From NCBI RefSeq assembly GCF_000027125.1, contig NC_017626.1: DNA of 64,000 nucleotides, one strand, 5' to 3'. A model generated the notes under the pieces. The model ran no database searches. It saw nothing but the letters and a program-made list of their open reading frames with translations, and was not told the origin of the DNA. Position 1 is the stretch's first letter; the number at the start of each line of letters is the position of its first letter. This DNA is from Escherichia coli 042 (GTDB taxonomy: Bacteria; Pseudomonadota; Gammaproteobacteria; Enterobacterales; Enterobacteriaceae). Below are positions 11,407 through 29,418 of this stretch, in pieces. The translations under genes and the position numbers were made by a program.

Positions 11407-11559
11407 CTACTTCTTCGATTCGTAAGCGAGAACTGCCTTAAACTCCATACCACGTTCTCTGATACTCAACTCACACAACGAGTCGCCTACCATCAGCGTG
11501 AATCCCAGTACTGTACAACACAGTACGATGATTGCCACAAGGGCATATTTTGTCAGCAT
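11407..11559 (-). CDS. Hok/Gef-family type I toxin, 50 aa (HokE-like), unannotated small ORF
   Basis: Hand translation of the minus strand gives [50 protein letters not shown]; single TM helix, conserved Cys and C-terminal AYE motif, GGGAGG SD upstream, GC hairpin just 3' of the stop. Below the track size cut-off. Confidence 0.8.
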
Positions 11560-16145: not shown

Positions 16146-16376
16146 GCGTCGTTATGTTCCAGTAAGCAAAGCTGTTTCTGCGCCCTGTCAGCGCCCATAA
16201 AACAGAAGAGAAGGTAAGGTTAACGGGGTGAACGGTGTGGATTAAAGACGGGATAGCGATAACTAATAACCAAATCGACTAACCTGTTTTAGCAATAGTC
16301 TTTAACAACAAAATAGATTAACCAACCCAATGAAAAACAAATGAATTTAGCCAATCATTAAGATAAATTAGCGATT
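16146..16376. promoter_or_regulatory. cysJIH promoter region / divergent queD upstream region
   Basis: Intergenic segment 5' of cysJ; CysB-dependent promoter expected from established knowledge. No sites mapped by me. Confidence 0.45.
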
Positions 16377-16460
16377 TTGCGCAACAAAGTCGTTTTAGAT
16401 AATGCGAAAAAACAGCCTTTCCGGTACTCTACGGCGGTTTTATCGTCCTGTAGAGAAATT

Positions 16461-16826
16461 ATGATGTCCACCACGTTATTTAAAGATTTCACCTTCGAAG
16501 CCGCTCACCGCTTACCACACGTCCCGGAAGGACATAAATGTGGTCGCCTGCACGGGCATTCCTTTATGGTGCGACTGGAAATCACCGGGGAAGTCGATCC
16601 GCATACGGGCTGGATTATCGATTTCGCTGAACTGAAAGCGGCGTTTAAGCCAACCTACGAGCGTCTCGATCACCATTATCTCAATGATATTCCAGGTCTG
16701 GAAAACCCAACCAGCGAAGTTTTAGCAAAATGGATTTGGGATCAAGTTAAACCGGTTGTGCCGCTGTTAAGTGCGGTGATGGTAAAAGAAACCTGTACTG
16801 CAGGCTGTATCTATCGCGGCGAATGA
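16461..16826 (+). CDS. queD: 6-carboxy-5,6,7,8-tetrahydropterin synthase
   Basis: Track ORF 16377..16826; start placed at [18 protein letters not shown] (about 16461), 121 aa; Zn-binding CGRLHGHSF motif. Confidence 0.92.
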
Positions 16827-16903
16827 TAAGAGTGTGTCGGCGGTCAATTTCCCTTAAGTAACGCCATGTTAGGGTGTTGTGTTCTGGATATCTGGGGCAT
16901 GAC

Positions 16904-18175
16904 ATGGAAGACAACTGCGACATTATTATTATTGGTGCGGGTATAGCAGGCACCGCTTGCGCGTTACGCTGCACGCGGGCAGGTTTGTCCGTTCTGTTAC
17001 TGGAACGCGCTGAAATCCCCGGCAGCAAAAATCTTTCCGGCGGGCGTTTATACACCCATGCGCTCGCGGAACTCCTCCCGCAATTTCATCTGACCGCGCC
17101 TCTTGAACGACGCATCACTCACGAAAGCCTTTCTCTGCTAACGCCGGATGGCGCAACGACGTTTTCCAGCTTACAGCCCGGCCGTGAATCCTGGAGTGTA
17201 TTACGTGCACGGTTCGATCCGTGGCTGGTTGCCGAAGCCGAAAAAGAAGGTGTCGAATGCATCCCCGGTGCGACGGTGGATGCGCTGTATGAAGAAAACG
17301 GCAGGGTGTGTGGTGTCATTTGTGGTGACGATATTCTCCGCGCCCGTTATGTGGTGCTGGCAGAAGGTGCCAACAGCGTCCTGGCTGAACGTCACGGGTT
17401 AGTGACTCGTCCTGCTGGCGAAGCGATGGCGTTGGGGATCAAAGAAGTGCTGTCGCTGGAAACATCCGCTATTGAAGAACGTTTTCATCTGGAGAATAAC
17501 GAAGGCGCAGCGTTGCTGTTCAGCGGCGGGATCTGTGATGACTTACCCGGCGGCGCATTTCTTTATACTAATCAACAAACGCTCTCGTTAGGGATTGTTT
17601 GCCCGCTCTCTTCCCTTACGCAAAGTCGTGTTCCGGCAAGCGAGCTGCTGGCTCGCTTTAAAACGCATCCGGCAGTGCGCCCGCTTATCAAAAACACGGA
17701 ATCACTGGAGTATGGTGCGCATCTGGTGCCAGAAGGTGGCTTGCACAGTATGCCGGTGCAATACGCCGGTAACGGCTGGCTGCTGCTGGGCGATGCGTTG
17801 CGCAGTTGCGTCAATACCGGAATTTCCGTGCGCGGCATGGATATGGCGCTAACTGGCGCGCAGGCGGCGGCACAAACGCTGATAAGCGCCTGCCAGCACC
17901 GCGAGCCGCAAAATCTGTTTCCGCTTTATCATCACAACGTCGAGCGCAGCCTGCTATGGGATGTTCTACAACGTTATCAGCATGTTCCGGCGCTTTTGCA
18001 ACGCCCTGGATGGTACCGTGCGTGGCCTGCGTTAATGCAGGATATTTCCCGCGATTTATGGGATCAGGGTGATAAACCTGTTCCACCGCTGCGCCAGTTA
18101 TTCTGGCGTCATTTACGTCGTCACGGCCTGTGGCATCTGGCGGGCGATGTTGTCAGGAGTATTCGATGTCTGTAG
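16904..18175 (+). CDS. ygcN: FAD-dependent oxidoreductase, FixC-like (ETF-quinone oxidoreductase family)
   Basis: Track ORF starts at GTG 16874; internal start MEDNCDIIIIGAGIAG (about 16904) gives the dinucleotide-binding GxGxxG motif at the N-terminus. Confidence 0.85.
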   Translation: MEDNCDIIIIGAGIAGTACALRCTRAGLSVLLLERAEIPGSKNLSGGRLYTHALAELLPQFHLTAPLERRITHESLSLLTPDGATTFSSLQPGRESWSVLRARFDPWLVAEAEKEGVECIPGATVDALYEENGRVCGVICGDDILRARYVVLAEGANSVLAERHGLVTRPAGEAMALGIKEVLSLETSAIEERFHLENNEGAALLFSGGICDDLPGGAFLYTNQQTLSLGIVCPLSSLTQSRVPASELLARFKTHPAVRPLIKNTESLEYGAHLVPEGGLHSMPVQYAGNGWLLLGDALRSCVNTGISVRGMDMALTGAQAAAQTLISACQHREPQNLFPLYHHNVERSLLWDVLQRYQHVPALLQRPGWYRAWPALMQDISRDLWDQGDKPVPPLRQLFWRHLRRHGLWHLAGDVVRSIRCL

Positions 18176-18426
18176 CCCGTAATCTCTGGCGCGCTGCTGA
18201 TGCGCCACATATTGTTCCGGCAGACTCCGTTGAGCGCCAGACGGCACAACAGTTGATTAACGCTTGTCCGGCTGGTCTTTTTTCGCTCACACCGGAGGGT
18301 GATTTGCACGTTGATTATCGTAATTGTCTGGAGTGCGGCACCTGCCGTTTGCTGTGCGATGAAAAAACGCTACAACAGTGGCACTATCCGCCTTCCGGAT
18401 TCGGCATCACCTACCGCTTTGGATAA
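18166..18426 (+). CDS. ygcO: ferredoxin-like protein, FixX-like
   Basis: 86 aa from MSVARNLW; cysteine motif CLECGTCRLLC; overlaps the ygcN 3' end. Confidence 0.85.
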   Translation: MSVARNLWRAADAPHIVPADSVERQTAQQLINACPAGLFSLTPEGDLHVDYRNCLECGTCRLLCDEKTLQQWHYPPSGFGITYRFG

Positions 18427-18442
18427 ATAATAAGGATAATTT

Positions 18443-19018
18443 ATGCCCCTCTTACACCTGCTCCGCCAGAATCCGGTGATTGCTGCCGTTAAAGATAATG
18501 CCAGCCTGCAACTGGCAATCGATTCTGAATGCCAGTTTATTTCCGTGTTGTACGGCAATATCTGCACCATCAGTAATATCGTTAAAAAGATTAAAAACGC
18601 CGGAAAATATGCCTTTATTCATGTTGATTTGCTGGAAGGCGCATCGAACAAAGAAGTGGTGATTCAGTTTCTGAAACTGGTGACCGAGGCGGACGGCATT
18701 ATCAGCACGAAAGCATCGATGCTAAAAGCGGCAAGAGCGGAAGGTTTTTTCTGTATTCATCGCCTGTTTATTGTTGATTCGATTTCGTTTCACAACATTG
18801 ATAAGCAAGTTGCGCAATCGAATCCGGATTGTATTGAGATCCTGCCAGGCTGTATGCCTAAAGTGCTAGGCTGGGTGACGGAGAAAATCCGCCAACCGCT
18901 GATTGCCGGCGGGCTGGTGTGCGATGAAGAAGATGCGCGTAATGCGATTAACGCGGGTGTTGTGGCGCTTTCCACCACGAATACCGGGGTCTGGACGTTA
19001 GCGAAAAAATTGCTTTGA
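18443..19018 (+). CDS. ygcP: GlpP-like glycerol-3-phosphate-responsive antiterminator family protein
   Basis: 191 aa; family assignment from overall similarity to GlpP-like proteins as I recall them and from position. Confidence 0.75.
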   Translation: MPLLHLLRQNPVIAAVKDNASLQLAIDSECQFISVLYGNICTISNIVKKIKNAGKYAFIHVDLLEGASNKEVVIQFLKLVTEADGIISTKASMLKAARAEGFFCIHRLFIVDSISFHNIDKQVAQSNPDCIEILPGCMPKVLGWVTEKIRQPLIAGGLVCDEEDARNAINAGVVALSTTNTGVWTLAKKLL

Positions 19019-19059
19019 CGGGATACTCGTAACGAGTTGAATTTGTGTGATTTGTAGGC

Positions 19060-19164
19060 TGCACGCCACATCCGACATTCAGCGCCTGATGCGACGCTTG
19101 ACGCGTCTTATCAGGCTTACAAGTCCCCAGCCCAGAACCGTAGGCAGGATCATCCGGCTGCACG
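19060..19164. repeat. REP / BIME-like cluster between ygcP and ygcQ
   Basis: GCCTGATGCGACGCTTGACGCGTCTTATCAGGCTTAC plus flanking partial inverted copies (GTAGGC...CATCCGGCTGCAC). Confidence 0.7.
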
Positions 19165-20025
19165 TTATTGGCATTCTGCGTGAATGTTTGTCACCAGTGC
19201 CTCCAGCACCACTTTCCAGTCATCAACCACGCCAACATCTGCCTGTGAAAATACCGCTGCGCTGGCGTCATGATTAATCGCCACCACAAACTTGCTATTG
19301 CGTACGCCCGCCATTAACGCTGCTGCGCCGGAAGCGCCAACAACAATACACACCTCAGGTGCCAGCAGATGTCCGGAAATACCAATCACTTTTTCAGCAT
19401 CAACGCCACCGTTCATCACTCGCGCCCGACTGTAGCCCACTTCGGCTCCCAGCTTTTCTGCCAGCATAGCGATTTCCTGGTTATCTGCCTCTCCGCCCTG
19501 CCCCACCACCAGCACCCGTCTGGCCTCAGCTAATGGGTCACGGGTAACATTTTTCAGATCCTCTGTGCTAACCAGCCAGTCGGGAAGCGCGCCGGGGACA
19601 ATGTTCAGTTGCTGCATACCAGAGGGCAATGTGGCGTTTTTCACTGCTCCCGCCTGGCGGGCAAGGGAAAGGCATAGCGGGCGTTTTTCTGTTTGCAGCG
19701 TCGCCGTTAGCGCATTTCCCCAGTGGGATTTGCGCACGCTTACGGTTGAAATATCTAACGAAGTCACCTGGCAGATGCTTGCACCATGTAAACGCCAGGC
19801 CAGCCGGGTCGACAGTTCATCACCAAACGTTCCCGGCGGAAAGAGAACAACGTCCGCTGGCGTTCGCTGCCACTGTTCCACCAGCGCATCCAGCACCTGT
19901 TCCGCCACTACGGGCTGAGGTTCAATCTGCCAGTGTGCCAGGGTACAACCGCTGAAATCCTGTTCTGCCAGCCAGCTCGCTATTGCGGCATTCTCCTGAT
20001 TTATTGTCACAATTGCGATATTCAT
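19165..20025 (-). CDS. ygcQ: electron transfer flavoprotein alpha-subunit-like (FixB-like)
   Basis: Track ORF 19165..20058; start placed at MNIAIVTINQENAAI (about 20025), overlapping the ygcR stop. Confidence 0.85.
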   Translation of the reverse strand: MNIAIVTINQENAAIASWLAEQDFSGCTLAHWQIEPQPVVAEQVLDALVEQWQRTPADVVLFPPGTFGDELSTRLAWRLHGASICQVTSLDISTVSVRKSHWGNALTATLQTEKRPLCLSLARQAGAVKNATLPSGMQQLNIVPGALPDWLVSTEDLKNVTRDPLAEARRVLVVGQGGEADNQEIAMLAEKLGAEVGYSRARVMNGGVDAEKVIGISGHLLAPEVCIVVGASGAAALMAGVRNSKFVVAINHDASAAVFSQADVGVVDDWKVVLEALVTNIHAECQ

Positions 20026-20801
20026 GGCTGCATCCTTTGGCGTAAATAGTCCTGCCATAGCTTTTGCGCTTTTTCTGCTACCGTTTGCCCATCAATCAGC
20101 GTCGCTCCGCGTTGTTGCTCTGCTCTTGCCAGTTGCAGACACTGCATCGCTGGCGATTCGGCAGCAACAGTTTTACGGATAATTGCTGCTTTCCCCGCCG
20201 CCATTCGCTGACGCATTCCCGGTACTGGCAAGGCCACTTCACCGCACTGACGCACGGCAATCACCGCAGGCAAGCGAACCCGGCAACAGCGCAGCCCATG
20301 TTCAGTACGCTGTTCGAGGGTGATAAACGGCGCGTCGAGAGTGAAACGCTCCACCTGGGTGAAGCAGGGCCAGCCCAGCATTTCCGCCAGCAAAAATGGC
20401 GTTTGCCCATTCTGCCCTTCGCTGCTTTGGCAGCCGGTAATTATCAGATCCAGCGGATTCTGACGCTGCCATTCGGCAATATGGCGAGCGACAAATTCCG
20501 GCGCAAAGCGCAGATCTGCCGCCGTCTCCAGTAATACAGCTTCCTCAAACCCAAGAGCCATGAGATAGCGCAGCCATTGCAACGCCCGTTCATCCCCCAT
20601 GCTCAACGCGGTTAAAGACATCGACGTACCGTTTTTTCTCTGCGTCAACAGCAGCGCGGCGGCAGCCTGTTCATCAGCACCGAGTAAACTTCGCAGAAGC
20701 GAAACATCCGGCCCGCAGTTACCCTGAGCCGCCGCCTGCCACTCTTTTTCCGCCAGCATTCCGGCATCCGGTTCGGCTTTAAACGCTAACAGAATGTTCA
20801 T
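20022..20801 (-). CDS. ygcR: electron transfer flavoprotein beta-subunit-like (FixA-like)
   Basis: About 259 aa from MNILLAFKAEPDAG; ETF-beta-like fold inferred from sequence and its pairing with ygcQ. Confidence 0.85.
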   Translation of the reverse strand: MNILLAFKAEPDAGMLAEKEWQAAAQGNCGPDVSLLRSLLGADEQAAAALLLTQRKNGTSMSLTALSMGDERALQWLRYLMALGFEEAVLLETAADLRFAPEFVARHIAEWQRQNPLDLIITGCQSSEGQNGQTPFLLAEMLGWPCFTQVERFTLDAPFITLEQRTEHGLRCCRVRLPAVIAVRQCGEVALPVPGMRQRMAAGKAAIIRKTVAAESPAMQCLQLARAEQQRGATLIDGQTVAEKAQKLWQDYLRQRMQP

Positions 20802-22116
20802 TCGCACCTCCTACATTTCCCGCCGCCACCAGCGGGAGTGCTTTGGTTTCTGGTGCCCATAGCCAGGTCACAACAAACCCAATCAACAACACTGCCGCCA
20901 GAAGCAATAAGGTGGCCTGCATTCCCCACTGCGCCAGCACCCACGGCAGCAGGCCGGTACTTACCGCCGCGCCCAACCGGCTCATGGCGGTGGCAAAACC
21001 GACGCCCAGAGAGCGAATGTCGGTGGGGAAACTTTCCGCAGGCAAAATGCCCACCAGATTACTGACTGCCGAAATGGTGGTACTGAAGAGAACAAAAAGC
21101 AGCAGCGTTAATGAACTGCCGGAAGGCAAACAGGCCATCACAACCAGCGTTGCCGCCAGCAGCAAAAAACTGCCAAGTAAAAATTTGCGATGTGCCAGCA
21201 GGTGCGTCAGAACTAATCCCAGCAGCGCGCCCACAATTAACAACGCATTAAGCATCAGGCTGGCAGTCAGCGCATCTTCCAGTCCAATCGTCTGGGCGAT
21301 AGTTGGCAGCCAGGTATAAATCACAAACCACGGGATCACGAGGCAGACAAAGAAGACGCTGTTAAACACCGTGCGCCGCCAGTAACGTGAAGAGAACAAA
21401 GTTTTGATATGTTTATGGGTCGCCGTTGCCACTTCATCGCCCAATAAAACATGGGGACCCAAATAGCGATGTACGATAGCGTGAGCTTCTGCAAAACGCC
21501 CCTGGCGCAGTAGCCAGCGCGGCGATTCTGGTGTTCCCCAACGTAACAGGGTAATCAGCAAGGCGGGCAGCGCCGCCGATGCCAGCAGCCAGCGCCAGGC
21601 CTCCGGGCTTTCGCTAATAAAGTGATGTCCGGCAATACTTGCCAGCACATAGCCCACCGTCCACACCACGCTGAATGCGCCCAGCAAAATACCGCGATGG
21701 CGGCGCGGAGAAAATTCAGCCAGCAAGGTGTGGCCTACTGAATAATCGCCTCCCAGTCCAATGCCTATCAAAATGCGCAGGCCAATCAGGTGCTCTGGCG
21801 TGGTGGCAAAAAATTGTAAAAACGAGGCGAGCGTAATCAGCACAAAGCTGAAGGTGAAGATTTTTTGTCGCCCGATATGGTCGGAGATCCACCCCAAAAC
21901 CAGACTGCCAAGAAACAAACCCAGTAGCGCCGAGCCGCCGATCATTCCTGCCATAAACGGCGTCAGTTGCATGGCTGGCGTAAGCTGAATAATGGCGTAC
22001 CCAATGACGCCGAGGACATAACCATCGGTCAGGTGTGCGCCGAAAGTGAGCGCAGCAATTCGGCAGTGAAAACTGTTAAGCGGTAAATCATCCATTCGCA
22101 CCGGTGAAGTGTTCAT
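20779..22116 (-). CDS. ygcS: MFS transporter (sugar-porter-like)
   Basis: Track ORF 20779..22191; start placed at MNTSPVRMDDLPLNSF (about 22116); 12-TM hydrophobic profile with MFS motifs. Confidence 0.85.
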   Translation of the reverse strand: MNTSPVRMDDLPLNSFHCRIAALTFGAHLTDGYVLGVIGYAIIQLTPAMQLTPFMAGMIGGSALLGLFLGSLVLGWISDHIGRQKIFTFSFVLITLASFLQFFATTPEHLIGLRILIGIGLGGDYSVGHTLLAEFSPRRHRGILLGAFSVVWTVGYVLASIAGHHFISESPEAWRWLLASAALPALLITLLRWGTPESPRWLLRQGRFAEAHAIVHRYLGPHVLLGDEVATATHKHIKTLFSSRYWRRTVFNSVFFVCLVIPWFVIYTWLPTIAQTIGLEDALTASLMLNALLIVGALLGLVLTHLLAHRKFLLGSFLLLAATLVVMACLPSGSSLTLLLFVLFSTTISAVSNLVGILPAESFPTDIRSLGVGFATAMSRLGAAVSTGLLPWVLAQWGMQATLLLLAAVLLIGFVVTWLWAPETKALPLVAAGNVGGANEHSVSV

Positions 22117-22209
22117 CTTTACCCCTTCATTGTCCGGTAATAAGAACGGCTTCTCACCTGAGAAGCCGAAAAGGCAACGCCCCGTCACCACGGGACGCTG
22201 CCTGACACA

Positions 22210-23664
22210 TTATTTTTCAATCGGATAGATAGTACCCGTGTTCATAATACCGTTAGGATCGAACTGCTTTTTCAGTCCTTCCAGCAACGCCCATGCGCTG
22301 CCGTGTTCCAGTTTGCTCCAGTGAACGCGATGTTTACCGATACCGTGGTGGTGCACCATCGAACCGCCGAGGCGAATGGTTTCTTCGCAGATGATTTTGT
22401 TGAGCGGATTGTGGTACTTGTCGATTTCCTCTTCCGGTTTGCAGTCTACAACGTTGTAGTCGTACACGAAGTACATGTTGGTGCCGTTCTGGTAGCTGTG
22501 AGAGGAGTGACCGCCCAGCATGGTGATGTCGTCGGCGTGTGGGAACTCGGTACGAATACGGTTGATGACGCTTTCGTAGATTTCGTGGATGCAGCTCCAG
22601 CAGCCGGACACTTCGGTGGTAAAGCCCATGTTGCCAGTTTTGAGGATCTGCACACGTTCGGCAGCCACTTTATCCGGCCCCCAGTTCAGGTTGTTAAACC
22701 AGGTTTCGATCAGTTTGCTGTCTACGCGCTGGCACTGCGGGTAGCGAGCAACAATTTCCGCAATCCCTTCGCCCGTCGCCTTCGCAATGCGTGGGTTACC
22801 TTCAGCCATAAAGATCAGCACGCATTTTCCGTCGGCAAAATGGGTGAAGTGTTGGGTGCCATCTTCAGCGTCATACAAACGAGCGATCGACGGACGATAC
22901 CCTTCCACCATGATTTCACGCAGGATGTTGAAGCCGGTTTTCATGTCTTCCAGGATATAGCCGTAGAAGAGGTTGTTTTCCGGGGTGAACTTAAAGATTT
23001 TCACAGTTACTTCAGTGATATAGCACAATGCACCTTCGTTGCCGATGATGATGTGACGAATGTCCGGGCCAGCTGCGCGGCGTGGCACGTTTTTAATACG
23101 TGTGACGGTGCCATCAGCCAATACTGCTTCCAGACCAACGACCATATCTTCGATTGCGCCGTAGAGTGTGGAAAACTGCCCGATACTGCGGGTCGCCACC
23201 AGGCCGCCCATCTGCGCCAGCGGCTTTGACTGCGGAGAATGCCCCGTGGTGTAACCTTTTTCACGCAACGCGTTTTCCAGCACCTCCAGCGGAACGCCAC
23301 ATTGCGCCGTGGCCTGCATATTCTCAATATCAATATTAATGATTTGATTCATGGCGGAGCCGTCGAGCACCACCGAGTTTTCCACAACGGTTTCCAGCCC
23401 ACCTTCGGTGGCGGAAGCACCGGTACGTGGCACACCGTTAATTTTGTGCGCATTCATAAAATTCAGCACACGGGAGACTTGTTCTGTGGAACCGAGTTTT
23501 ACGACCGCTGCCGGAATCGGCAAAGTATAAATACCATGAATATCCGGAAATTTACGAAAACGGTCAATACTGTTTTTCTTTAATACTGTTTCATCGGTAA
23601 TTACGCGATCTGCACCAACAATTTCCTTTAGCTGGTCGACAATCGCTGCGCGAGATAAAGACAT
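22210..23664 (-). CDS. ygcU: FAD-binding oxidase (FAD-linked oxidase / alkyl-DHAP-synthase-like family)
   Basis: 484 aa; FAD-binding PCMH-type domain signature region. Confidence 0.85.
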   Translation of the reverse strand: MSLSRAAIVDQLKEIVGADRVITDETVLKKNSIDRFRKFPDIHGIYTLPIPAAVVKLGSTEQVSRVLNFMNAHKINGVPRTGASATEGGLETVVENSVVLDGSAMNQIINIDIENMQATAQCGVPLEVLENALREKGYTTGHSPQSKPLAQMGGLVATRSIGQFSTLYGAIEDMVVGLEAVLADGTVTRIKNVPRRAAGPDIRHIIIGNEGALCYITEVTVKIFKFTPENNLFYGYILEDMKTGFNILREIMVEGYRPSIARLYDAEDGTQHFTHFADGKCVLIFMAEGNPRIAKATGEGIAEIVARYPQCQRVDSKLIETWFNNLNWGPDKVAAERVQILKTGNMGFTTEVSGCWSCIHEIYESVINRIRTEFPHADDITMLGGHSSHSYQNGTNMYFVYDYNVVDCKPEEEIDKYHNPLNKIICEETIRLGGSMVHHHGIGKHRVHWSKLEHGSAWALLEGLKKQFDPNGIMNTGTIYPIEK

Positions 23665-23733
23665 AGTAATTCCTTCCTGATAATAAAAATGGAATAATCA
23701 TTAATAAGAGAAAACAGAAACCACCGTTATGGA

Positions 23734-24519
23734 TTAGCGCACTAAATAACCGCCATCAACCACTAATAAATGTCCGTTGACATAATTCGATGCCGGACTT
23801 GCGAGGAATACGGCTGCGCCCATTAAATCCTGAGTATCGCCCCAACGGTTTGCCGGAATATGTTCAAGAACGCGCTGGTTAGTTTCTGGATTACTACGGG
23901 TCGCCAGAGTGATATCGGTAGCGTAATATCCCGGGGCAATACCATTCACCTGAATATTATATTGACCTAATTCATCGCAATAGGCTTTGGTGAATCCGGC
24001 AAGAGCATGTTTAGTGGCAGAATAAGCAGGTGACCATTGTCCACCTAAGTAAGAGAACAATGAACAGATATTAATGATTTTACCGCTTTTCTGCGGGATC
24101 ATAATTTTTGCAGCTTCATAGCTTAACTCGAATGCGGCGGTCAGGTTCACATCAATCATTGGATCCCAGTCGGCACGACCGAAGTCCAGCACCTTATTCA
24201 GCTTACAAATACCGGCATTGTTAACCAGAATATCGACGGTACCGAAACGTTCGCAACAGGCGGCGATTATCTTCTGCGGCGCGCCTTTTGCGGTGATATC
24301 CACCTGCATAAAATCAACTTCAACACCCTGTTTTTCAATCATTCCCTTTGTTTCGCCGTTATCTTTAACGAAGCTTGGAATAAAGATATTTGCACCAGCT
24401 TTGGCCAGCGCCATGGCAAATGCCTGGCCTAAACCGCTATTCCCGCCGGTAACAATTGCGGTTTTACCTTTCAGGGAGAAAAAATCCATTGAGAACGCAT
24501 TGAGAGATTCGATTGACAT
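23734..24519 (-). CDS. ygcW: short-chain dehydrogenase/reductase (KduD-like)
   Basis: Track ORF 23734..24594; start placed at MSIESLNAFSMDFFSLKGK (about 24519); Rossmann motif TGGNSGLG and catalytic YSATK. Confidence 0.88.
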   Translation of the reverse strand: MSIESLNAFSMDFFSLKGKTAIVTGGNSGLGQAFAMALAKAGANIFIPSFVKDNGETKGMIEKQGVEVDFMQVDITAKGAPQKIIAACCERFGTVDILVNNAGICKLNKVLDFGRADWDPMIDVNLTAAFELSYEAAKIMIPQKSGKIINICSLFSYLGGQWSPAYSATKHALAGFTKAYCDELGQYNIQVNGIAPGYYATDITLATRSNPETNQRVLEHIPANRWGDTQDLMGAAVFLASPASNYVNGHLLVVDGGYLVR

Positions 24520-24837
24520 AGTTAGCTCCAATTTCCGTAAGGCAAAAAAAAAGAAAGGTAACTTCCCCCGCGAGAGGGAAGTTACCTTTCTCATTATCTC
24601 TGGTAACTGGAGATAATTTTTATCATAAGGGCATAATCGCTAATGTGATCGTAATCACAGTGTTATATTCGAATTGTCAAATAATTTTAAAAAGCAGAAG
24701 CGTGATTACTCTCACACAACACCACTGCTTTCCATGTTATTTCTTATTGCAATTACTAGAGACCTGAGAAAAGTAATCCACCTGAAAGGGCGGCTTACTT
24801 TTCTCTTTTTTTTGTCTATTACAAATGGGAATACGAT

Positions 24838-26115
24838 ATGCAACACAACTCATATCGCCGTTGGATAACCCTCGCGATAATTAGTTTTAGCGGCGGCGTT
24901 AGTTTCGACCTGGCTTATTTACGTTATATTTATCAAATTCCCATGGCGAAATTTATGGGATTCAGCAATACCGAGATAGGTTTAATAATGAGTACCTTTG
25001 GTATTGCGGCTATTATTCTTTATGCCCCCAGCGGCGTTATTGCCGATAAATTTTCACACCGCAAAATGATTACTTCCGCGATGATCATTACCGGATTACT
25101 GGGTCTGTTAATGGCAACATATCCACCGCTGTGGGTAATGCTCTGTATTCAGGTCGCCTTTGCGATAACGACGATTTTAATGCTGTGGTCGGTGTCGATT
25201 AAAGCCGCCTCGTTGCTGGGCGATCATAGCGAGCAAGGGAAAATTATGGGCTGGATGGAAGGGCTGCGCGGCGTCGGTGTAATGTCGCTGGCGGTGTTTA
25301 CCATGTGGGTCTTTTCTCGCTTTGCACCGGATGACAGCGCCAGCCTGAAAACGGTCATTATTATCTATAGTGTGGTTTACATTCTGCTGGGCATTTTGTG
25401 TTGGTTTTTTGTTAGCGATAACAACAACCTGCGCAATACCAATAACGAAGAAAAACAGTCATTCCAGCTTAGCGACATCCTGGCTGTTTTGCGCATCAGC
25501 ACCACCTGGTATTGCAGCATGGTGATTTTTGGTGTCTTCACCATCTACGCCATTCTGAGTTACTCCACCAACTATCTGACCGAAATGTACGGCATGTCGC
25601 TGGTGGCGGCGAGCTACATGGGGATTGTGATCAACAAAATCTTCCGCGCACTGTGCGGCCCACTTGGTGGCATTATCACCACCTACAGCAAAGTGAAATC
25701 CCCTACCCGCGTGATCCAAATCCTTTCCGTACTCGGCTTGCTGGCGTTAACTGCCCTGCTCGTCACGAACTCTAACCCGCAATCGGTCGCGATGGGGATT
25801 GGCCTGATTTTACTGCTGGGATTCACCTGTTACGCCTCACGCGGGCTGTACTGGGCCTGCCCTGGCGAAGCGAGAACACCGTCTTACATTATGGGCACCA
25901 CGGTAGGTATTTGTTCGGTGATTGGATTCCTGCCGGATGTCTTCGTTTACCCGATTATCGGCTACTGGCAAGACACCCTGCCCGCTGCAGAAGCCTACCG
26001 CAATATGTGGCTGATGGGCATGGCGGCGCTTGCCATGGTGATCGTCTTTACCTTTTTGCTGTTCCAAAAAATTCGTACTGCTGATAGCGCCCCTGCTATG
26101 GCTAGCAGCAAGTAA
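24838..26115 (+). CDS. yqcE: MFS transporter
   Basis: 425 aa, polytopic hydrophobic profile; position between ygcW and ygcE. Confidence 0.85.
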   Translation: MQHNSYRRWITLAIISFSGGVSFDLAYLRYIYQIPMAKFMGFSNTEIGLIMSTFGIAAIILYAPSGVIADKFSHRKMITSAMIITGLLGLLMATYPPLWVMLCIQVAFAITTILMLWSVSIKAASLLGDHSEQGKIMGWMEGLRGVGVMSLAVFTMWVFSRFAPDDSASLKTVIIIYSVVYILLGILCWFFVSDNNNLRNTNNEEKQSFQLSDILAVLRISTTWYCSMVIFGVFTIYAILSYSTNYLTEMYGMSLVAASYMGIVINKIFRALCGPLGGIITTYSKVKSPTRVIQILSVLGLLALTALLVTNSNPQSVAMGIGLILLLGFTCYASRGLYWACPGEARTPSYIMGTTVGICSVIGFLPDVFVYPIIGYWQDTLPAAEAYRNMWLMGMAALAMVIVFTFLLFQKIRTADSAPAMASSK

Positions 26116-26141
26116 GTCCAGAAAATTACAGGAGAAAAATC

Positions 26142-27620
26142 ATGTCGAAAAAATACATCATAGGGATTGATGGCGGAAGTCAGAGCACAAAAGTGGTGAT
26201 GTATGATCTGGAAGGTAATGTGGTTTGCGAAGGCAAAGACTTATTGCAGCCGATGCACACGCCAGATGCCGATACCGCAGAACATCCTGACGACGATTTA
26301 TGGGCATCATTATGTTTTGCCGGTCACGATTTGATGAGTCAGTTTGCCGGGAATAAAGAAGATATTGTCGGTATTGGTCTGGGCTCCATCCGTTGCTGCC
26401 GTGCGTTATTGAAAGCCGATGGCACGCCAGCTGCGCCGTTGATTAGCTGGCAGGATGCACGCGTTACACGCCCTTACGAACATACGAATCCTGACGTGGC
26501 ATATGTCACCTCTTTTTCAGGTTATCTGACGCATCGCTTAACCGGCGAGTTTAAAGACAATATCGCCAACTATTTTGGTCAGTGGCCGGTGGATTATAAG
26601 ACCTGGGCATGGAGTGAAGATGCCGCAGTCATGGAGAAGTTTAATATCCCCCGTCATATGCTGTTTGATGTGCAAATGCCTGGCACCGTCCTCGGACATA
26701 TCACACCACAAGCCGCACTGGCGACACATTTCCCGGCAGGACTGCCGGTTGTTTGTACCACCAGTGATAAACCGGTAGAAGCTCTGGGGGCCGGATTACT
26801 GGATAATGAAACTGCGGTAATTTCTCTTGGCACTTACATCGCATTGATGATGAACGGCAAAGCACTGCCGAAAGATCCGGTGGCGTACTGGCCAATTATG
26901 TCTTCTATTCCGCAAACATTGCTGTATGAAGGTTACGGTATCCGCAAAGGCATGTGGACAGTGAGCTGGCTGCGCGACATGTTAGGCGAGTCGTTAATTC
27001 AGGATGCCAAAGCACAGGATCTTTCACCGGAAGATTTACTCAACAAGAAAGCGTCTTGTGTGCCGCCTGGCTGTAATGGTCTGATGACGGTGCTGGACTG
27101 GCTGACCAATCCGTGGGAACCGTACAAACGCGGGATTATGATCGGCTTTGATTCCAGCATGGATTACGCATGGATATATCGTTCGATACTGGAAAGCGTG
27201 GCGCTGACGCTGAAGAACAATTACGACAATATGTGTAATGAAATGAATCACTTTGCAAAGCATGTGATCATTACTGGCGGTGGTTCGAACAGCGATCTGT
27301 TTATGCAGATTTTTGCCGACGTGTTCAACCTTCCGGCACGACGTAACGCCATTAATGGTTGTGCAAGTCTGGGGGCAGCGATTAATACGGCGGTAGGTCT
27401 GGGGCTATACCCGGATTACGCAACGGCTGTCGACAAAATGGTTCGCATGAAAGATATCTTTATGCCTGTTGAGAGCAACGCCAAACGCTACGACGCGATG
27501 AATAAAGGCATTTTCAAAGACCTAACCAAACACACTGATGTGATCCTGAAAAAATCGTATGAAGTGATGCATGGTGAGCTGGGGAATGAAGATTCGATCC
27601 AGAGCTGGTCGAATGCGTAA
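26142..27620 (+). CDS. ygcE: FGGY-family carbohydrate kinase
   Basis: 492 aa; N-terminal GIDGGSQSTK sugar-kinase motif and C-terminal ITGGGSNSDLFMQIFADVF. Confidence 0.88.
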   Translation: MSKKYIIGIDGGSQSTKVVMYDLEGNVVCEGKDLLQPMHTPDADTAEHPDDDLWASLCFAGHDLMSQFAGNKEDIVGIGLGSIRCCRALLKADGTPAAPLISWQDARVTRPYEHTNPDVAYVTSFSGYLTHRLTGEFKDNIANYFGQWPVDYKTWAWSEDAAVMEKFNIPRHMLFDVQMPGTVLGHITPQAALATHFPAGLPVVCTTSDKPVEALGAGLLDNETAVISLGTYIALMMNGKALPKDPVAYWPIMSSIPQTLLYEGYGIRKGMWTVSWLRDMLGESLIQDAKAQDLSPEDLLNKKASCVPPGCNGLMTVLDWLTNPWEPYKRGIMIGFDSSMDYAWIYRSILESVALTLKNNYDNMCNEMNHFAKHVIITGGGSNSDLFMQIFADVFNLPARRNAINGCASLGAAINTAVGLGLYPDYATAVDKMVRMKDIFMPVESNAKRYDAMNKGIFKDLTKHTDVILKKSYEVMHGELGNEDSIQSWSNA

Positions 27621-27667
27621 GTGAGGAAGACCGGGCGGGAAACTGCCCGGCCTGAACATACCTGAAT

Positions 27668-27804
27668 GGTTATCCCCGCTGACGCGGGGAACATAAGTTC
27701 GACAACTTAAAAAATGATAACAAGTCCGGTTTATCCCCGCTGATGCAGGGAACATAATAAAAACTTTAACTAGTTCGGTTTATCCCTGTTTTTACAAGGA
27801 ATAT
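27668..27804 (-). CRISPR. degenerate CRISPR remnant (CRISPR2.2-like): about 3 decayed repeats
   Basis: Decayed repeat copies at about 27668 (GGTTATCCCCGCTGACGCGGGGAACAT), 27727 (CGGTTTATCCCCGCTGATGCAGGGAACAT) and 27776 (CGGTTTATCCCTGTTTTTACAAGGAATAT); spacing 59 then 49 bp. Confidence 0.7.
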
Positions 27805-28257
27805 TAACTACACTCGATGTCTTTAGAATAAAAGACAATACGAATCGCACTTTATCAATTTTCACTTAAAGTATGAACTGGATATCTTTATTCATAAGAA
27901 CTATTCATCAACAGCGTATAGAGGCGATTATGTAAAATCACTCATTAGCCTCAAAACAAAGACAAATTTCCAGATTTATTACTTAATCAATGAATAATAA
28001 GCTTAAAAAATACACTGTTATTCTAAAGAAAAAATTAACAGGCATTAATTAATATTAAAAAAATAATATATTAAAATTTCTTAACGATTTAAGAATCATA
28101 CAAATAACACTTTGATTAAATTTAATTTTTTGTATCGATAATTGTGAACTTCTCTGGCATGGAGAACTATTTTGAACATGAGGTGTTACGTGGATATGTT
28201 GCTTATTACAAGTACTGCTAATATAAAAACTTGAGAAAGAGATAACGGGTTATATGG

Positions 28258-28408
28258 TGGTTTATCCCCGCTGGCGCGGGGAACTCTTGGCATAGGCGCT
28301 ATAGCGGCGCTCTGTGTCCGGTTTATCCCCGCTGACGTGGGGAACTCAAAGACAAATTTCTTTGTTCCTATGGCCAGACCGGTTTATCCCCGCTGGCGCG
28401 GGGAACTC
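28258..28408 (-). CRISPR. CRISPR array (CRISPR2.3-like): 3 repeats, 2 spacers
   Basis: Repeats at about 28258, 28319, 28380 with 61-bp period, consensus CGGTTTATCCCCGCTGGCGCGGGGAACTC; the middle repeat carries GACGTGGGG. Confidence 0.9.
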
Positions 28409-28500
28409 TCTAAACATAACCTATTATTAATTAATGATTTTTTAAGCCAGTCACAATCTACCAACTTTACAGTATCACACAAACAACACATCCATTATGT
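28409..28500 (-). promoter_or_regulatory. CRISPR leader for the 28258-28408 array
   Basis: AT-rich, abuts the terminal repeat, shares AAACATAAC and CAATCTACCAAC with the 2554-2649 leader. Confidence 0.65.
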
Positions 28501-28746
28501 TAAAGAGCATTTAATCCATTGATTAAAAAGATAAATATTTGAAATAACTCTATTCAAACTAAAATCTACCAAATTTCACCGCAATAATTTTCACTCCAAC
28601 GAAAAATTAACGCCATAAAATTTGTAGAGAATGATAATGATTAGTTCAGGATGGGCAAAATGGAGGTTTTTCAGAGGCGACAAAGAATATAAATGAGTAG
28701 AAGTCTTTACAGGTTCCACCCATTTATAACGCTTATAAATGTTTAA

Positions 28747-29418
28747 TCAGGCAATATTTAAATATTTATGCGTTTGCATCGACAAACGCCAGTTGCGCGC
28801 AATGCACGTATCGATACATAAACGAGTAGCATCATCCTTTTGGCTAATCGGCTGCAGTGCAATGACTCGCGGTTTATCATCGGTCAGTGTTGCCAGTAGT
28901 TCATCCAGTGCTTCAATATCACGTACGCGTCCCACTGGATGCTTGATTTCGTTGGCTCGCTCCAGTGCCTGTGACAACACTTCATAGCCGCCGCGCATGT
29001 TCAGCTTTGGCGATACGGTAACCCAGGTATTCGGTGTGCAGCGTACCTCATGAGTACCACTGGTTTCGATCTGGCAGCTAAAACCGTTCTTTTCGAGCAG
29101 GTCAGTCAGTGGCAGCAAATCATGAATGCAAGGCTCACCACCCGTAATCACCACATGCCGCGCGGTGTATCCCTGGCGACCAATGACAGCCAGCAAGTCT
29201 TCACTGCTCGCCGCCCCCCACTTATCACTCTCTTTGGTCTTCGCCAGAATGCTGAAAAGGGAGACTTCCCGATCCTCAAGCTTTTCCCAGGTGTGTTTGG
29301 TGTCGCACCAGGCACAGCCAACCGGGCATCCCTGTAAACGAATAAAAATGGCGGGGACGCCGGTAAAGTAACCCTCACCTTGCAGGGTCTGGAACATCTC
29401 GTTAATCGGGTACTGCAT
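28747..29418 (-). CDS. queE: 7-carboxy-7-deazaguanine synthase (radical SAM)
   Basis: 223 aa, MQYPINEMFQTLQGEGYFTGVPAIFIRLQGCPVGCAWCDTKHTWEK (radical-SAM Cys cluster). Confidence 0.93.
   Translation of the reverse strand: MQYPINEMFQTLQGEGYFTGVPAIFIRLQGCPVGCAWCDTKHTWEKLEDREVSLFSILAKTKESDKWGAASSEDLLAVIGRQGYTARHVVITGGEPCIHDLLPLTDLLEKNGFSCQIETSGTHEVRCTPNTWVTVSPKLNMRGGYEVLSQALERANEIKHPVGRVRDIEALDELLATLTDDKPRVIALQPISQKDDATRLCIDTCIARNWRLSMQTHKYLNIA

Follow-up and report, generated by a model that had tools for sequence, protein, structure and literature searches.

Ten genes lie at positions 16904-27620 of the window, the 64-kb stretch of Escherichia coli DNA analyzed here. All ten reading frames of this ygcNOPQRSUW-yqcE-ygcE block, originally predicted as an island, are intact, and the same ten genes are annotated in RefSeq for a 99.7%-identical genome. 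Position 16874 opens the longest GTG-initiated frame; the annotated ygcN ATG lies 30 nucleotides further in.

16904-18175, plus strand: ygcN, FixC-like flavoprotein of the ETF:quinone-oxidoreductase type (Pfam DAO and ETFQO_UQ-bd)
18166-18426, plus strand: ygcO, FixX-like ferredoxin (Pfam Fer4_9 and Fer4_7)
18443-19018, plus strand: ygcP, GlpP-family RNA-binding antiterminator (PF04309, G3P_antiterm, 210.6 bits, full length)
19165-20025, minus strand: ygcQ, ETF alpha subunit, short and divergent (Pfam ETF_alpha, 64 bits, and a partial ETF domain)
20022-20801, minus strand: ygcR, ETF beta subunit (PF01012, 61 bits)
20779-22188, minus strand: ygcS, MFS transporter, sugar-porter/NiaP/organic-cation-like (Pfam Sugar_tr, 180 bits)
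22210-23664, minus strand: ygcU, AGPS-type FAD enzyme (Pfam FAD_binding_4 and FAD-oxidase_C)
23734-24519, minus strand: ygcW, KduD/gluconate-5-dehydrogenase-like SDR (Pfam adh_short, 178 bits)
24838-26115, plus strand: yqcE, MFS transporter of the anion:cation symporter (D-galactonate-like) type (Pfam MFS_1, 93 bits)
26142-27620, plus strand: ygcE, FGGY-family kinase (Pfam FGGY_N and FGGY_C)

Pfam bore out each gene family originally named: a FixC-like flavoprotein with an ETF-QO ubiquinone-binding domain (30.6 bits against a cutoff of 27.7), ETF alpha, ETF beta and FAD_binding_4 with FAD-oxidase_C, as well as a 4Fe-4S ferredoxin, G3P_antiterm, two MFS transporters, an SDR and an FGGY kinase. 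None of the ten proteins reaches an NCBIfam equivalog cutoff. YgcN scores 378 bits with PRK10015 and 364 bits with FixC, both below cutoff; YgcO scores 76.9 bits with FixX (cutoff 166) and YgcW 349.7 bits with PRK06935 (cutoff 369), and the best models for YgcE, XylB (143 bits) and LsrK (142 bits), fall far short of theirs. YgcS matches TIGR00895 at 183 bits and the organic cation family TIGR00898 at 136 bits; YqcE matches TIGR00893 at 67.9 bits. The best solved relative of YgcE is the AI-2 kinase 5ya0 (E 1e-29), and YgcP matches PDB 3kts (E 1e-27). The phenotypes recorded in the literature are all indirect: ygcR appears as a MazF-linked 'death gene', ygcS overexpression gives a higher NMN titre from nicotinamide (PMC8601175), and ygcU is slightly induced by D-serine and has no deletion phenotype. 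Full-text literature searches found no substrate or pathway for the cluster, in keeping with its original description as unassigned.

The three transcription units proposed earlier fit the layout ygcNOP (plus), ygcQRSUW (minus) and yqcE-ygcE (plus), with neighboring genes in each unit either overlapping (ygcN and ygcO by 10 nucleotides, ygcR by 4 with ygcQ and by 23 with ygcS) or separated by 16-69 nucleotides. Divergent promoters occupy the gap that separates ygcW from yqcE; ygcP and ygcQ are convergent. Of 5426 complete E. coli genomes, 5060 have at least 80% of the block, and most of it is missing from about 7%. 'Island' overstates the case: the GC content is ordinary, and the cluster occupies the queD-queE interval in every Enterobacteriaceae locus examined. 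Type I-E CRISPR repeats occur at 2158-2553, 27670-27806 and 28262-28410 of the window, so the cluster does lie between two CRISPR loci, though the cas operon, cysHIJ and queD share that interval. Among the Enterobacteriaceae loci compared, this CRISPR neighborhood is specific to Escherichia, and the proximity is incidental.

The same genes cluster in dozens of other genera, and their grouping is not due to chance; in these ten ygc genes E. coli has its own version of a module spread over many phyla. YgcW, YgcU and YgcE form the invariant core of the module, found as a trio in essentially every locus uncut by a contig end and usually accompanied by the antiterminator YgcP, present in most complete loci across phyla, and by the ETF pair. 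Of all the proteins in the system, YgcU is conserved best (65-76% identity in Firmicutes, Desulfobacterota and Actinomycetes). YgcW, always the neighbor of YgcU, retains 64-82% identity across phyla, and YgcE, always in the core, 43-59%. Sequence change is much faster in the ETF and FixCX proteins than in the core (YgcQ is 56-63% identical to its Citrobacter counterpart and only 27-40% across phyla), so their role could be looser or different. The ETF pair adjoins YgcU in most anaerobes; several aerobes have the core without ETF. ygcN adjoins the core only in Enterobacterales; the FixCX-like YgcNO pair, originally counted as part of the set, is an enterobacterial add-on outside the conserved core.

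E. coli has paralogous electron-transfer sets in fixABCX, which accompanies caiTABCDE (carnitine), and in ydiQRST with ydiO. There too, ETF alpha and beta, a FixC-like flavoprotein and a FixX-like ferredoxin are dedicated to a single catabolic flavoenzyme, and the cai/fix system works on a quaternary ammonium compound that a BCCT transporter imports. Unlike these systems, however, the ygc cluster has a VAO/AGPS-family flavoprotein as partner enzyme rather than an acyl-CoA dehydrogenase, lacks CoA-transferase and CoA-ligase genes, and carries its ETF genes in the catabolic operon with the C and X genes beside the regulator; all ygc proteins score below the Fix and Ydi equivalog cutoffs.

Outside Enterobacterales, the transporter beside the core is of the BCCT family in 14 of 24 long loci and an OpuA/C-type ABC system in another 5 (19 of 24 together), while the core enzymes of these loci are 60-80% identical to those of E. 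coli. BCCT or Opu transporters take the place of ygcS in other phyla, and the Enterococcus cluster has an osmoprotectant ABC system embedded within it. Methylamine and formaldehyde genes often lie near the core in these genomes: recurrent neighbors are MttB (508 bits), a corrinoid protein with its methyltransferase, Fae (above its NCBIfam cutoff) and a betaine-aldehyde-dehydrogenase-like enzyme, and an aspartase-like enzyme is also found. This company makes the originally proposed substrate, a sugar, polyol or sugar acid, doubtful.

The central flavoenzyme points the same way. YgcU had been called an FAD-linked oxidase; the family is right, but the best PDB relatives and residue alignment place it more exactly as an AGPS-type enzyme. 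Its closest solved relatives are AGPS structures (PDB 4bby and 2uuu; 4bby at E 2.8e-40 alone and 2.3e-56 with a profile), which match it in both domains. The catalytic residues R419, Y578 and H615-617 of AGPS align, in a comparison including a Y578F mutant chain, with R262, Y398 and H438-440 of YgcU, all invariant in 14 diverse orthologs. Unlike AGPS, YgcU (484 residues against 658) lacks the N-terminal portion of about 175 residues, the alignment beginning at AGPS residue 180; its context is soluble and catabolic, with no lipid genes nearby; and it is genetically linked to ETF. The AGPS exchange is redox-neutral and would need no ETF, so AGPS chemistry leaves this tight link unexplained. A second comparison is with the ETF-coupled D-2-hydroxy-acid dehydrogenases, namely the LctBCD lactate dehydrogenase/ETF complex (PDB 7qh2) and the mitochondrial D-lactate and D-2-hydroxyglutarate dehydrogenases, which belong to the same flavoenzyme superfamily and, like YgcU, have an adjacent ETF pair. 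Anaerobe loci carry a second oxidase of this type, with a GlcD-type (G/S)EHG motif in place of HHH and sometimes a ferredoxin-domain ETF. YgcU has HHH instead of the Glu-His site, and E. coli lacks the second oxidase.

Degradation of an ordinary sugar, polyol or sugar acid, as first proposed, would involve MFS import, the kinase YgcE, YgcW as an NAD-dependent dehydrogenase and YgcU as a flavin dehydrogenase, with quinone receiving the electrons by way of the ETF pair and YgcNO. Enzymes of these families typically serve sugar metabolism, YgcW being closest to KduD and gluconate 5-dehydrogenase, YqcE falling in the D-galactonate-type family and YgcS among the sugar porters; the cluster is under CRP control; and a kinase followed by a flavin dehydrogenase acting on a polyol phosphate has precedents in glycerol and erythritol catabolism. 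Given the onium-type transporters and methylamine genes beside the same enzymes in other phyla, the unreached equivalog cutoffs, and the AGPS-type residues of YgcU without the GlcD-type carboxylate and metal site, we consider this route unlikely, although far from negligible. The AGPS features of YgcU, taken with the BCCT and OpuA/C transporters and the methylamine and formaldehyde genes, suggest that an onium-bearing, glycerol-like compound is more likely than a plain sugar. The organic-cation-family match of YgcS is in line with such an onium group.

The regulatory features of the cluster are concentrated between ygcW and yqcE:

24539-24618, minus strand: ygcW leader RNA element (covariance model R1, 77 bits, E 1e-12)
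24644-24659, unstranded: CRP site 1, perfect consensus TGTGATCGTAATCACA, serving the ygcW promoter
24701-24716, unstranded: CRP site 2, one mismatch, serving the yqcE promoter
24741-24817, plus strand: yqcE leader RNA element (covariance model R1, 74.9 bits, E 3e-12)

CRP site 1, predicted earlier by PhyloScan (PMC1794230), is the sole zero-mismatch match within the window. By sequence reading, its center lies about 41 nucleotides upstream of the start of the ygcW RNA element, and that of site 2 about 41.5 nucleotides upstream of 24750. The perfect site and the presence of yqcE-ygcE on a list of Crp-activated genes (PMC8085971) indicate catabolite control. The original view of a coherent, intact catabolic cluster with its own electron-transfer proteins is supported.

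In the ygcW leader, the antiterminator strands 24608-24602 (AGUUACC) and 24586-24580 (GGUAACU) compete with an intrinsic terminator (24592-24551; 19 bp with 8 GC pairs in the terminator scan) that is followed by a run of nine U residues, 30 nucleotides before the ATG. The yqcE leader pairs 24752-24757 (AUUACU) with 24772-24777 (AGUAAU) and has its terminator at 24766-24805, followed by eight U residues, 33 nucleotides before the ATG. The free energies of both leaders favor termination by default: -34.2 kcal/mol (z -6.7) for the terminator versus -6.7 for the antiterminator in ygcW, and -22.3 (z -4.1) versus -1.4 in yqcE. The motif pattern matches twice in the window, where 0.04 matches are expected, and 108 times across the fetched loci, in every case shortly upstream of cluster genes or transporters, including yqcE homologs in Photobacterium (L004) and Enterococcus (L085). 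Its consensus is AGUUACY with RGUAACU, forming 6-7 bp around a loop with invariant AGAG...GAGAAA. Across the alignment the terminator helix is 91.6% paired and the antiterminator helix 88.5%, versus 17-56% when slid. Antiterminator pair 13-43 is GC in 28 sequences and AU in 12, pair 18-38 is UA in 32 and CG in 6, and column 38 covaries with both of its partners, these counts coming from related sequences in an alignment of our choosing. The element has no Rfam entry. The covariance model finds exactly two matches in each of 26 enterobacterial loci and, outside enterobacteria, matches all 19 loci with YgcP versus 1 of 17 without it. We therefore propose YgcP as the predicted regulator of the ygcW and yqcE leaders.

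Very strong terminators blocking both operons could also be expected of a cryptic or decaying remnant, kept by linkage, never expressed and without current function in E. coli. The literature yielded no growth phenotype, the genes are still in the y-ome, the ETF and FixCX parts diverge fast, and some genomes lack most of the block. The chance of this is nevertheless slim: all ten frames are open, YgcU, YgcW and YgcP are 93-97% identical to their Citrobacter counterparts at a syntenic position, and the compensatory changes of the regulatory RNA and the CRP sites are kept across genera, which is not expected of dead DNA.

The closest regulatory parallel is the glp regulon of Bacillus subtilis and Staphylococcus aureus, whose regulator GlpP shares family PF04309 with YgcP. 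The glp leaders likewise place promoter, protein site and terminator in that order in the 5' UTR, as described for B. subtilis (PMC9604022), and the canonical S. aureus glpF and glpD leaders share both the ygc layout and the AAGUUA and GAGA repeats; in both systems the phosphorylated inducer is presumably made by the regulon's kinase. The ygc version, in contrast, belongs to a Gram-negative bacterium, is subject to CRP as well, and governs an SDR, an AGPS-like flavoenzyme, ETF and betaine-type or MFS transporters rather than glpF, glpK, glpD and glpTQ. This resemblance, the RefSeq name of YgcP (glycerol-3-phosphate responsive antiterminator) and the glycerol kinases among the PDB relatives of YgcE could suggest a second glycerol/glycerol-3-phosphate route, with YgcE as a glycerol-kinase paralog, YgcU and ETF as an alternative G3P dehydrogenase and YgcP sensing G3P. 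We find this very improbable: with 103 bits YgcE stays below the GlpK cutoff of 590 and aligns poorly in the N-terminal substrate domain, the route would leave nothing for the invariant SDR or the betaine-type transporters to do, the covariance model parts the ygc element, a distinct variant (about 75 bits), from glp leaders (about 13 bits), and E. coli already has glpK, glpD and glpABC. That YgcU is a true alkyl-DHAP synthase in a cluster making ether-linked glycerolipids or exchanging DHAP substituents is hardly credible despite the conserved AGPS residues, given the missing N-terminal part, the absence of lipid-synthesis acyltransferase or reductase genes from all of the loci, and the CRP activation, two importers, kinase and ETF chain, which point to catabolism.

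We instead favor the reading that the ten ygc genes form a single regulon serving the breakdown of a small polar compound, a proposal whose full mechanism we regard as evenly balanced between right and wrong. As sequence and comparison show, two divergent CRP-dependent promoters drive transcription from the region between ygcW and yqcE, and each RNA opens with a conserved leader that by default folds into a strong intrinsic terminator, against which the weak alternative helix of 6-7 bp competes. Once bound by inducer, YgcP, made from the separate ygcNOP unit, would hold the antiterminator; as GlpP senses glycerol-3-phosphate, by analogy the phosphorylated intermediate that YgcE produces is the most likely inducer. 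YgcS and YqcE would import the substrate or substrates, YgcE would phosphorylate a terminal hydroxyl and YgcW would oxidize the neighboring one, in that presumed order, giving what is probably a 2-keto phosphate resembling dihydroxyacetone phosphate with a substituent at C1. YgcU, with the Arg, Tyr and His-His-His of alkyl-DHAP synthase, would act at C1 so that the substituent is removed or oxidized, exchanging electrons in one direction or the other with YgcR/YgcQ, which in Enterobacterales YgcN/YgcO would wire to the quinone pool. The betaine/choline/carnitine-type transporters and the methylamine and formaldehyde neighbors make a head group with an onium function the probable C1 substituent. 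Candidates, and no more than that, are diesters resembling glycerophosphocholine or the betaine-lipid head group glyceryl-trimethylhomoserine, and since the E. coli importers are MFS proteins, neither BCCT nor Opu, the enterobacterial substrate could differ. We infer the chemistry and the substrate; the predicted regulatory model is well supported, and the on/off RNA switch of the ygc cluster can now be read from sequence.

The ygc genes form an old syntenic block, not a recent island. Searching with the block at 16874-27620 gave 5431 matching records, with a top identity of 99.7%, and 5060 of 5426 complete E. coli genomes carry 80% or more of it. All ten ygc ORFs are intact in the window. Their RefSeq order in a near-identical genome is queD, ygcN-ygcO-ygcP (plus strand), ygcQ-ygcR-ygcS-ygcU-ygcW (minus strand), yqcE-ygcE (plus strand), a CRISPR array, then queE. 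The ten-gene cluster is as the original prediction described it, and each protein family named there was recovered by Pfam. The term 'island' did not survive: a foreign origin is rejected on the ordinary GC content (50-55%, the AT-rich regulatory region excepted) and on a position that is syntenic across Enterobacteriaceae. In all Enterobacteriaceae loci examined, the cluster lies between queD/cysJ and queE, with queE directly after ygcE. The predicted location between CRISPR loci is correct, with type I-E repeats at 2158-2553, 27670-27806 and 28262-28410; the cas operon (with an intact cas3), cysHIJ and queD also lie in between. The adjacency is peculiar to Escherichia, and a functional link to CRISPR is rejected on the arrangement in other genera.

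Three further features of the region were seen. A degenerate short CRISPR remnant (27670-27806; three repeats, 63-93% alike) starts 50 nucleotides past the ygcE stop codon, and a better-preserved array (28262-28410) follows 450 nucleotides beyond the remnant, where other Enterobacteriaceae have queE. The 146-nucleotide gap between the converging ygcP and ygcQ weakly matches the REP-derived nucleoid-associated RNA naRNA4 of Rfam (19035-19117, plus strand; 30.4 bits, E 0.034), and the matching stretch is probably a REP element that serves as a stop in both directions. Between cas3 and cysH, a 50-amino-acid ORF (11407-11559, minus strand) occupies the place where a near-identical genome is annotated with a Hok/Gef-family toxin gene.

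The original prediction regarded the cluster as unassigned, and no published substrate or pathway for it was found in the full-text literature, in which subscription journals are thinly covered. Existing reports are indirect: Crp activation is listed for yqcE-ygcE (PMC8085971), a CRP site has been predicted in the ygcW-yqcE gap (PMC1794230), overexpression of YgcS, picked as a 26.5%-identical NiaP homologue, gave more NMN from nicotinamide (PMC8601175), and ygcR has been described as a 'death gene' linked to MazF when DNA is damaged (PMC2646832). The ten proteins are members of known families, from which specificity does not follow. None of the ten reached an NCBIfam equivalog cutoff. YgcW fell below both models for KduD, the 2-dehydro-3-deoxy-D-gluconate 5-dehydrogenase (PRK06935, 349.7 bits versus 369; TIGR01832, 274 versus 339). 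YgcE reached no cutoff among the FGGY kinases GlpK, XylB, LsrK, GntK, AraB and FucK, the best scores being for XylB (143 bits versus 380) and LsrK (142 versus 528). PDB searches with YgcU, YgcE, YgcW and YgcP returned no entry naming a relevant substrate.

To place the cluster phylogenetically, a YgcU profile scan with one genome per species was run; it confirmed at least 553 of the 600 pattern matches listed, and homologues of the ten ygc proteins and of extra seed proteins were tabulated in each of the best 80 loci. Across these best 80 of at least 553 loci, the core is invariant (YgcW at 64-82% identity, YgcU at 65-76%, YgcE at 43-58%), and YgcP is found in most complete loci (39-61%). YgcU is 71-73% identical in Sporomusa, Alkalihalobacillus, Desulfobacula and Photobacterium. 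Within the same 80 loci, an ETF pair follows YgcU in Enterobacteriaceae and most anaerobes at just 27-40% identity; Halobacillus-type, Saccharopolyspora, SAR324 and Erwinia/Pantoea-type loci lack it, and YgcN and YgcO are confined to Enterobacterales. In many anaerobes YgcQ is followed by another FAD_binding_4 oxidase, in some cases accompanied by a second ETF with a ferredoxin domain. Streptomyces clavuligerus has the smallest version, made up of YgcP, the SDR, YgcU and the kinase.

Between E. coli and Citrobacter (loci L006-L032 and L041), YgcU is 93-94%, YgcW 95-97% and YgcP 96-97% identical, and the electron-transfer proteins evolve much faster (YgcQ 56-63%, YgcR 70-74%, YgcO 65-77%, YgcN 72-77%). 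Two loci probably reflect contaminated public assemblies: one lies on a contig attributed to a Planctomycetota MAG (L005), whose YgcU is 100% identical to that of E. coli, and the other is an Enterobacteriaceae-type ygc locus in a 'Chryseobacterium sp.' assembly (L028).

The closest solved structures to YgcU are alkyl-DHAP synthases (4bby, E 2.8e-40, or 2.3e-56 with a profile), followed by glycolate oxidase, LctD, and D-lactate and D-2-hydroxyglutarate dehydrogenases. AGPS residues Arg419, Tyr578 (pinpointed via the Y578F mutant chain 4bca) and His615-617 align with R262, Y398 and H438-440 of YgcU, all of them invariant in 14 orthologues from five phyla. Unlike AGPS, YgcU (484 amino acids) has no counterpart to the first ~175 residues, the alignment beginning at AGPS residue 180 of 658. 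Given this missing N-terminal part, YgcU is read as acting in an AGPS-like manner at C1 of a DHAP-like molecule, and not as an ether-lipid synthase. The second oxidase of the anaerobe loci differs from YgcU in having the GlcD/D-lactate-dehydrogenase motif (G/S)EHG where YgcU has HHHG. As for electron transfer, YgcQ and YgcR match the ETF alpha and beta subunits (PF00766, 64 bits; PF01012, 61 bits), the FixC-like flavoprotein YgcN matches the quinone-binding domain ETFQO_UQ-bd (30.6 bits, cutoff 27.7), and the FixX-like ferredoxin YgcO has Fer4 domains and a FixX score of 76.9 bits. Scores fell short of the NCBIfam cutoffs for Fix orthology (FixC, 364 bits versus 610; FixX, 77 versus 166; FixB, 63.5 versus 549); the ygc proteins are paralogues of the Fix proteins.

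The 318-nucleotide intergenic region between ygcW and yqcE carries two divergent copies of a conserved leader element, each with a CRP site centred, as read from the sequence, about 41 nucleotides upstream of its start:

24644-24659, CRP site 1, perfect consensus
24701-24716, CRP site 2, one mismatch
24592-24551, minus strand, terminator of the ygcW leader, 30 nucleotides before the start codon, followed by a U run (8-9)
24766-24805, plus strand, terminator of the yqcE leader, 33 nucleotides before the start codon, followed by a U run (8-9)

Both terminators share the pattern GAGAAARGUAA...UUACYUUUCUY followed by the U run, which has two matches in the 64-kb window versus 0.04 expected. In the fetched loci the leader element occurs 108 times, always directly upstream of ygcW, yqcE, ygcU, BCCT, MFS or ABC-transporter genes, in Enterobacterales, Photobacterium, Clostridia, Bacilli and Syntrophomonadaceae. 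Pattern and covariance-model searches found no element before ygcN, and no Rfam family matched the leader over 16300-28800 at E values up to 1, the sole match being the REP-like naRNA4 elsewhere. A further hairpin in the E. coli ygcW leader (24617-24593) was rejected as part of the element, as it is not conserved in other genera; transcription probably starts downstream of its 5' arm.

When 46 distinct copies of the element were aligned, two mutually exclusive helices emerged. The terminator helix is 91.6% paired, and at seven of its pairs both positions vary. In the antiterminator, an upstream AGUUACY pairs with RGUAACU of the terminator 5' arm (88.5% paired, versus 17-56% when the partner is slid), and compensatory changes are seen at pair 13-43 (GC in 28 copies, AU in 12) and pair 18-38 (UA in 32, CG in 6). 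Column 38 covaries with its terminator partner and its antiterminator partner alike, and the loop between the antiterminator strands contains an invariant AGAG...GAGAAA. The two terminators are far more stable than the antiterminators (-34.2 and -22.3 kcal/mol versus -6.7 and -1.4), suggesting that termination is the default and that a protein is needed to prevent it.

The distribution of the element follows that of ygcP. The covariance model has exactly two matches in each of 26 enterobacterial loci, and among the other loci compared it finds the element in 19 of 19 with ygcP, including those of Sporomusa, Dethiosulfatibacter, Streptomyces, Saccharopolyspora, Enterococcus and Eubacterium, versus one of 17 without it, on a contig that ends at ygcW. 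In Limnobaculum eriocheiris (L036, 3083-3175), the two leader terminators have merged into a single palindromic hairpin that is read from either strand, with flanking A and T runs and the upstream antiterminator strand missing. Three clostridial loci (L063, 9842-9915; L065, 9820-9916; L068, 8707-8801) have a second copy with its own promoter-like -35/-10 boxes between the kinase gene and ygcU, which splits the core there into two separately gated units.

YgcP matches G3P_antiterm (PF04309) over its full length (210.6 bits; residues 12-184 versus profile positions 1-173 of 173) and has a PDB relative in 3kts (E 1e-27). Three features of GlpP-type control are present: a full-length PF04309 regulator, a 5' UTR terminator directly downstream of a promoter, and a conserved competing antiterminator that co-occurs with the regulator gene. 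The glp leader layout has been described in B. subtilis (PMC9604022). For canonical glp leaders, we used the S. aureus glpP-glpF-glpK-glpD genes, taken from a record mislabelled 'plasmid'. The glpF and glpD leaders have the same layout as the ygc element and share its AAGUUA and GAGA repeats, but score just 13 bits with the ygc covariance model. The ygc element is thus a distinct variant of the GlpP-type leader. The ligand of YgcP may differ from G3P. GlpP paralogues of B. thuringiensis, C. butyricum and Listeria adjoin other genes and are uninformative for ygc; in the first two (L088, L087) they lie ahead of ABC transporters, Ugp-like or for sugars, that come with a HAD phosphatase or sugar-phosphate isomerase, and the ygc-type RNA element is absent from both. 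The GlpP family seems to control several different regulons.

The clue to the substrate comes from transporters and neighbouring genes. Outside Enterobacterales, in loci of at least 13.8 kb, the transporter adjoining the core is a BCCT in 14 of 24 cases and an OpuA/OpuC-type ABC system in five; the cluster on an Enterococcus gilvus megaplasmid has an 'osmoprotectant' ABC system within it. Recurrent neighbours include MttB-family methyltransferases (508 bits) with a B12-binding corrinoid protein and an MtrH-like methyltransferase, a formaldehyde-activating enzyme above its NCBIfam cutoff, a betaine-aldehyde-dehydrogenase-like enzyme and a class-III-type alcohol dehydrogenase. YgcS, which takes the BCCT/Opu place in E. 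coli, also matches an organic-cation transporter family. A YqcE-like MFS protein accompanies BCCT or Opu in Photobacterium, Enterococcus and rumen Eubacterium, so that two transporters seem to be the rule. Together, the betaine-type transporters, the methylamine and formaldehyde neighbours and the YgcS match point to an onium substrate, one with a quaternary ammonium or similar group and a hydroxylated end on which the kinase and SDR could work. Glycerophosphocholine-like diesters are candidates, and so is glyceryl-trimethylhomoserine from betaine lipids, for which the ygc-type operon of Alkalihalobacillus, which includes an aspartase-like lyase, would give a complete route to fumarate and trimethylamine. 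In Erwinia/Pantoea-type Enterobacterales (L039, L048, e.g. 2459-2962, and L050), Fae homologues above the NCBIfam cutoff adjoin ygcS, an aldo-keto reductase and an aldehyde dehydrogenase; these bacteria are not known to make methanopterin.

The original prediction read the ten genes as a complete catabolic pathway for a sugar, polyol or sugar acid. Its catabolic part is supported, and a plain sugar substrate is doubtful. An ordinary pathway of this kind is somewhat unlikely overall, and is conceivable for Enterobacterales in that their transporters are of the MFS type. We favor, at about even odds, a regulon for the catabolism of a compound that probably bears an onium group, and rate as unlikely its most far-reaching form: a widespread and undescribed pathway, with the ygc genes as its E. 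coli copy, in which an ETF-coupled AGPS-type flavoenzyme cleaves a C1-heteroatom bond (ether, phosphoester or C-N) of a keto-phosphate. The kinase and SDR would make this keto-phosphate from an onium-substituted glycerol-like compound, such as deacylated betaine-lipid or phosphatidylcholine head groups, and the switch of the pathway would be a leader RNA of a new, protein-dependent class to which a GlpP paralogue binds. A cryptic remnant and a second glycerol route are both very improbable, each being contradicted by specific results. True ether-lipid synthesis, against which specific results also speak, is scarcely credible.

In the favored reading, YgcE and YgcW would convert the imported compound to a DHAP-like keto-phosphate, and YgcP, together with a phosphorylated inducer made by YgcE, would hold the antiterminator. 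YgcU would act at C1 of the keto-phosphate and exchange electrons with YgcRQ, which YgcNO would link to quinone. The AGPS-type reaction is redox-neutral and does not explain the need for an ETF. YgcU may oxidise its substrate or break it by reductive cleavage. For such a cleavage, quinol would be the electron donor or, in anaerobes, a neighbouring D-2-hydroxy-acid dehydrogenase, a supply resembling that of the Fix proteins feeding CaiA.

Among the unassigned genes of E. coli, the most studied bacterium, the ten ygc genes rank with the best conserved. They were already known and annotated, and the cluster as originally described was a modest finding; the cross-phylum core, AGPS-type active site, link to betaine-type transporters and new leader RNA turn it into a directly testable problem. 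The two leaders offer a ready-made reporter for an inducer search, the transporter and neighbour evidence narrows the candidates to betaine-like compounds with a glycerol-like end, and from the AGPS-type active site an unusual flavin reaction is predicted. Should these readings be confirmed, the leader would be a newly recognised RNA element that responds to a protein and could serve as a genetic switch, as the glpD leader already does, and the electron-transfer genes would represent a third function for the Fix-like sets of E. coli. AGPS chemistry would gain a new, catabolic role, and a new breakdown route would be in place for abundant osmolytes or for the lipid head groups plentiful in gut, marine and saline habitats; this route may bear on how methylamines form in guts and sediments.
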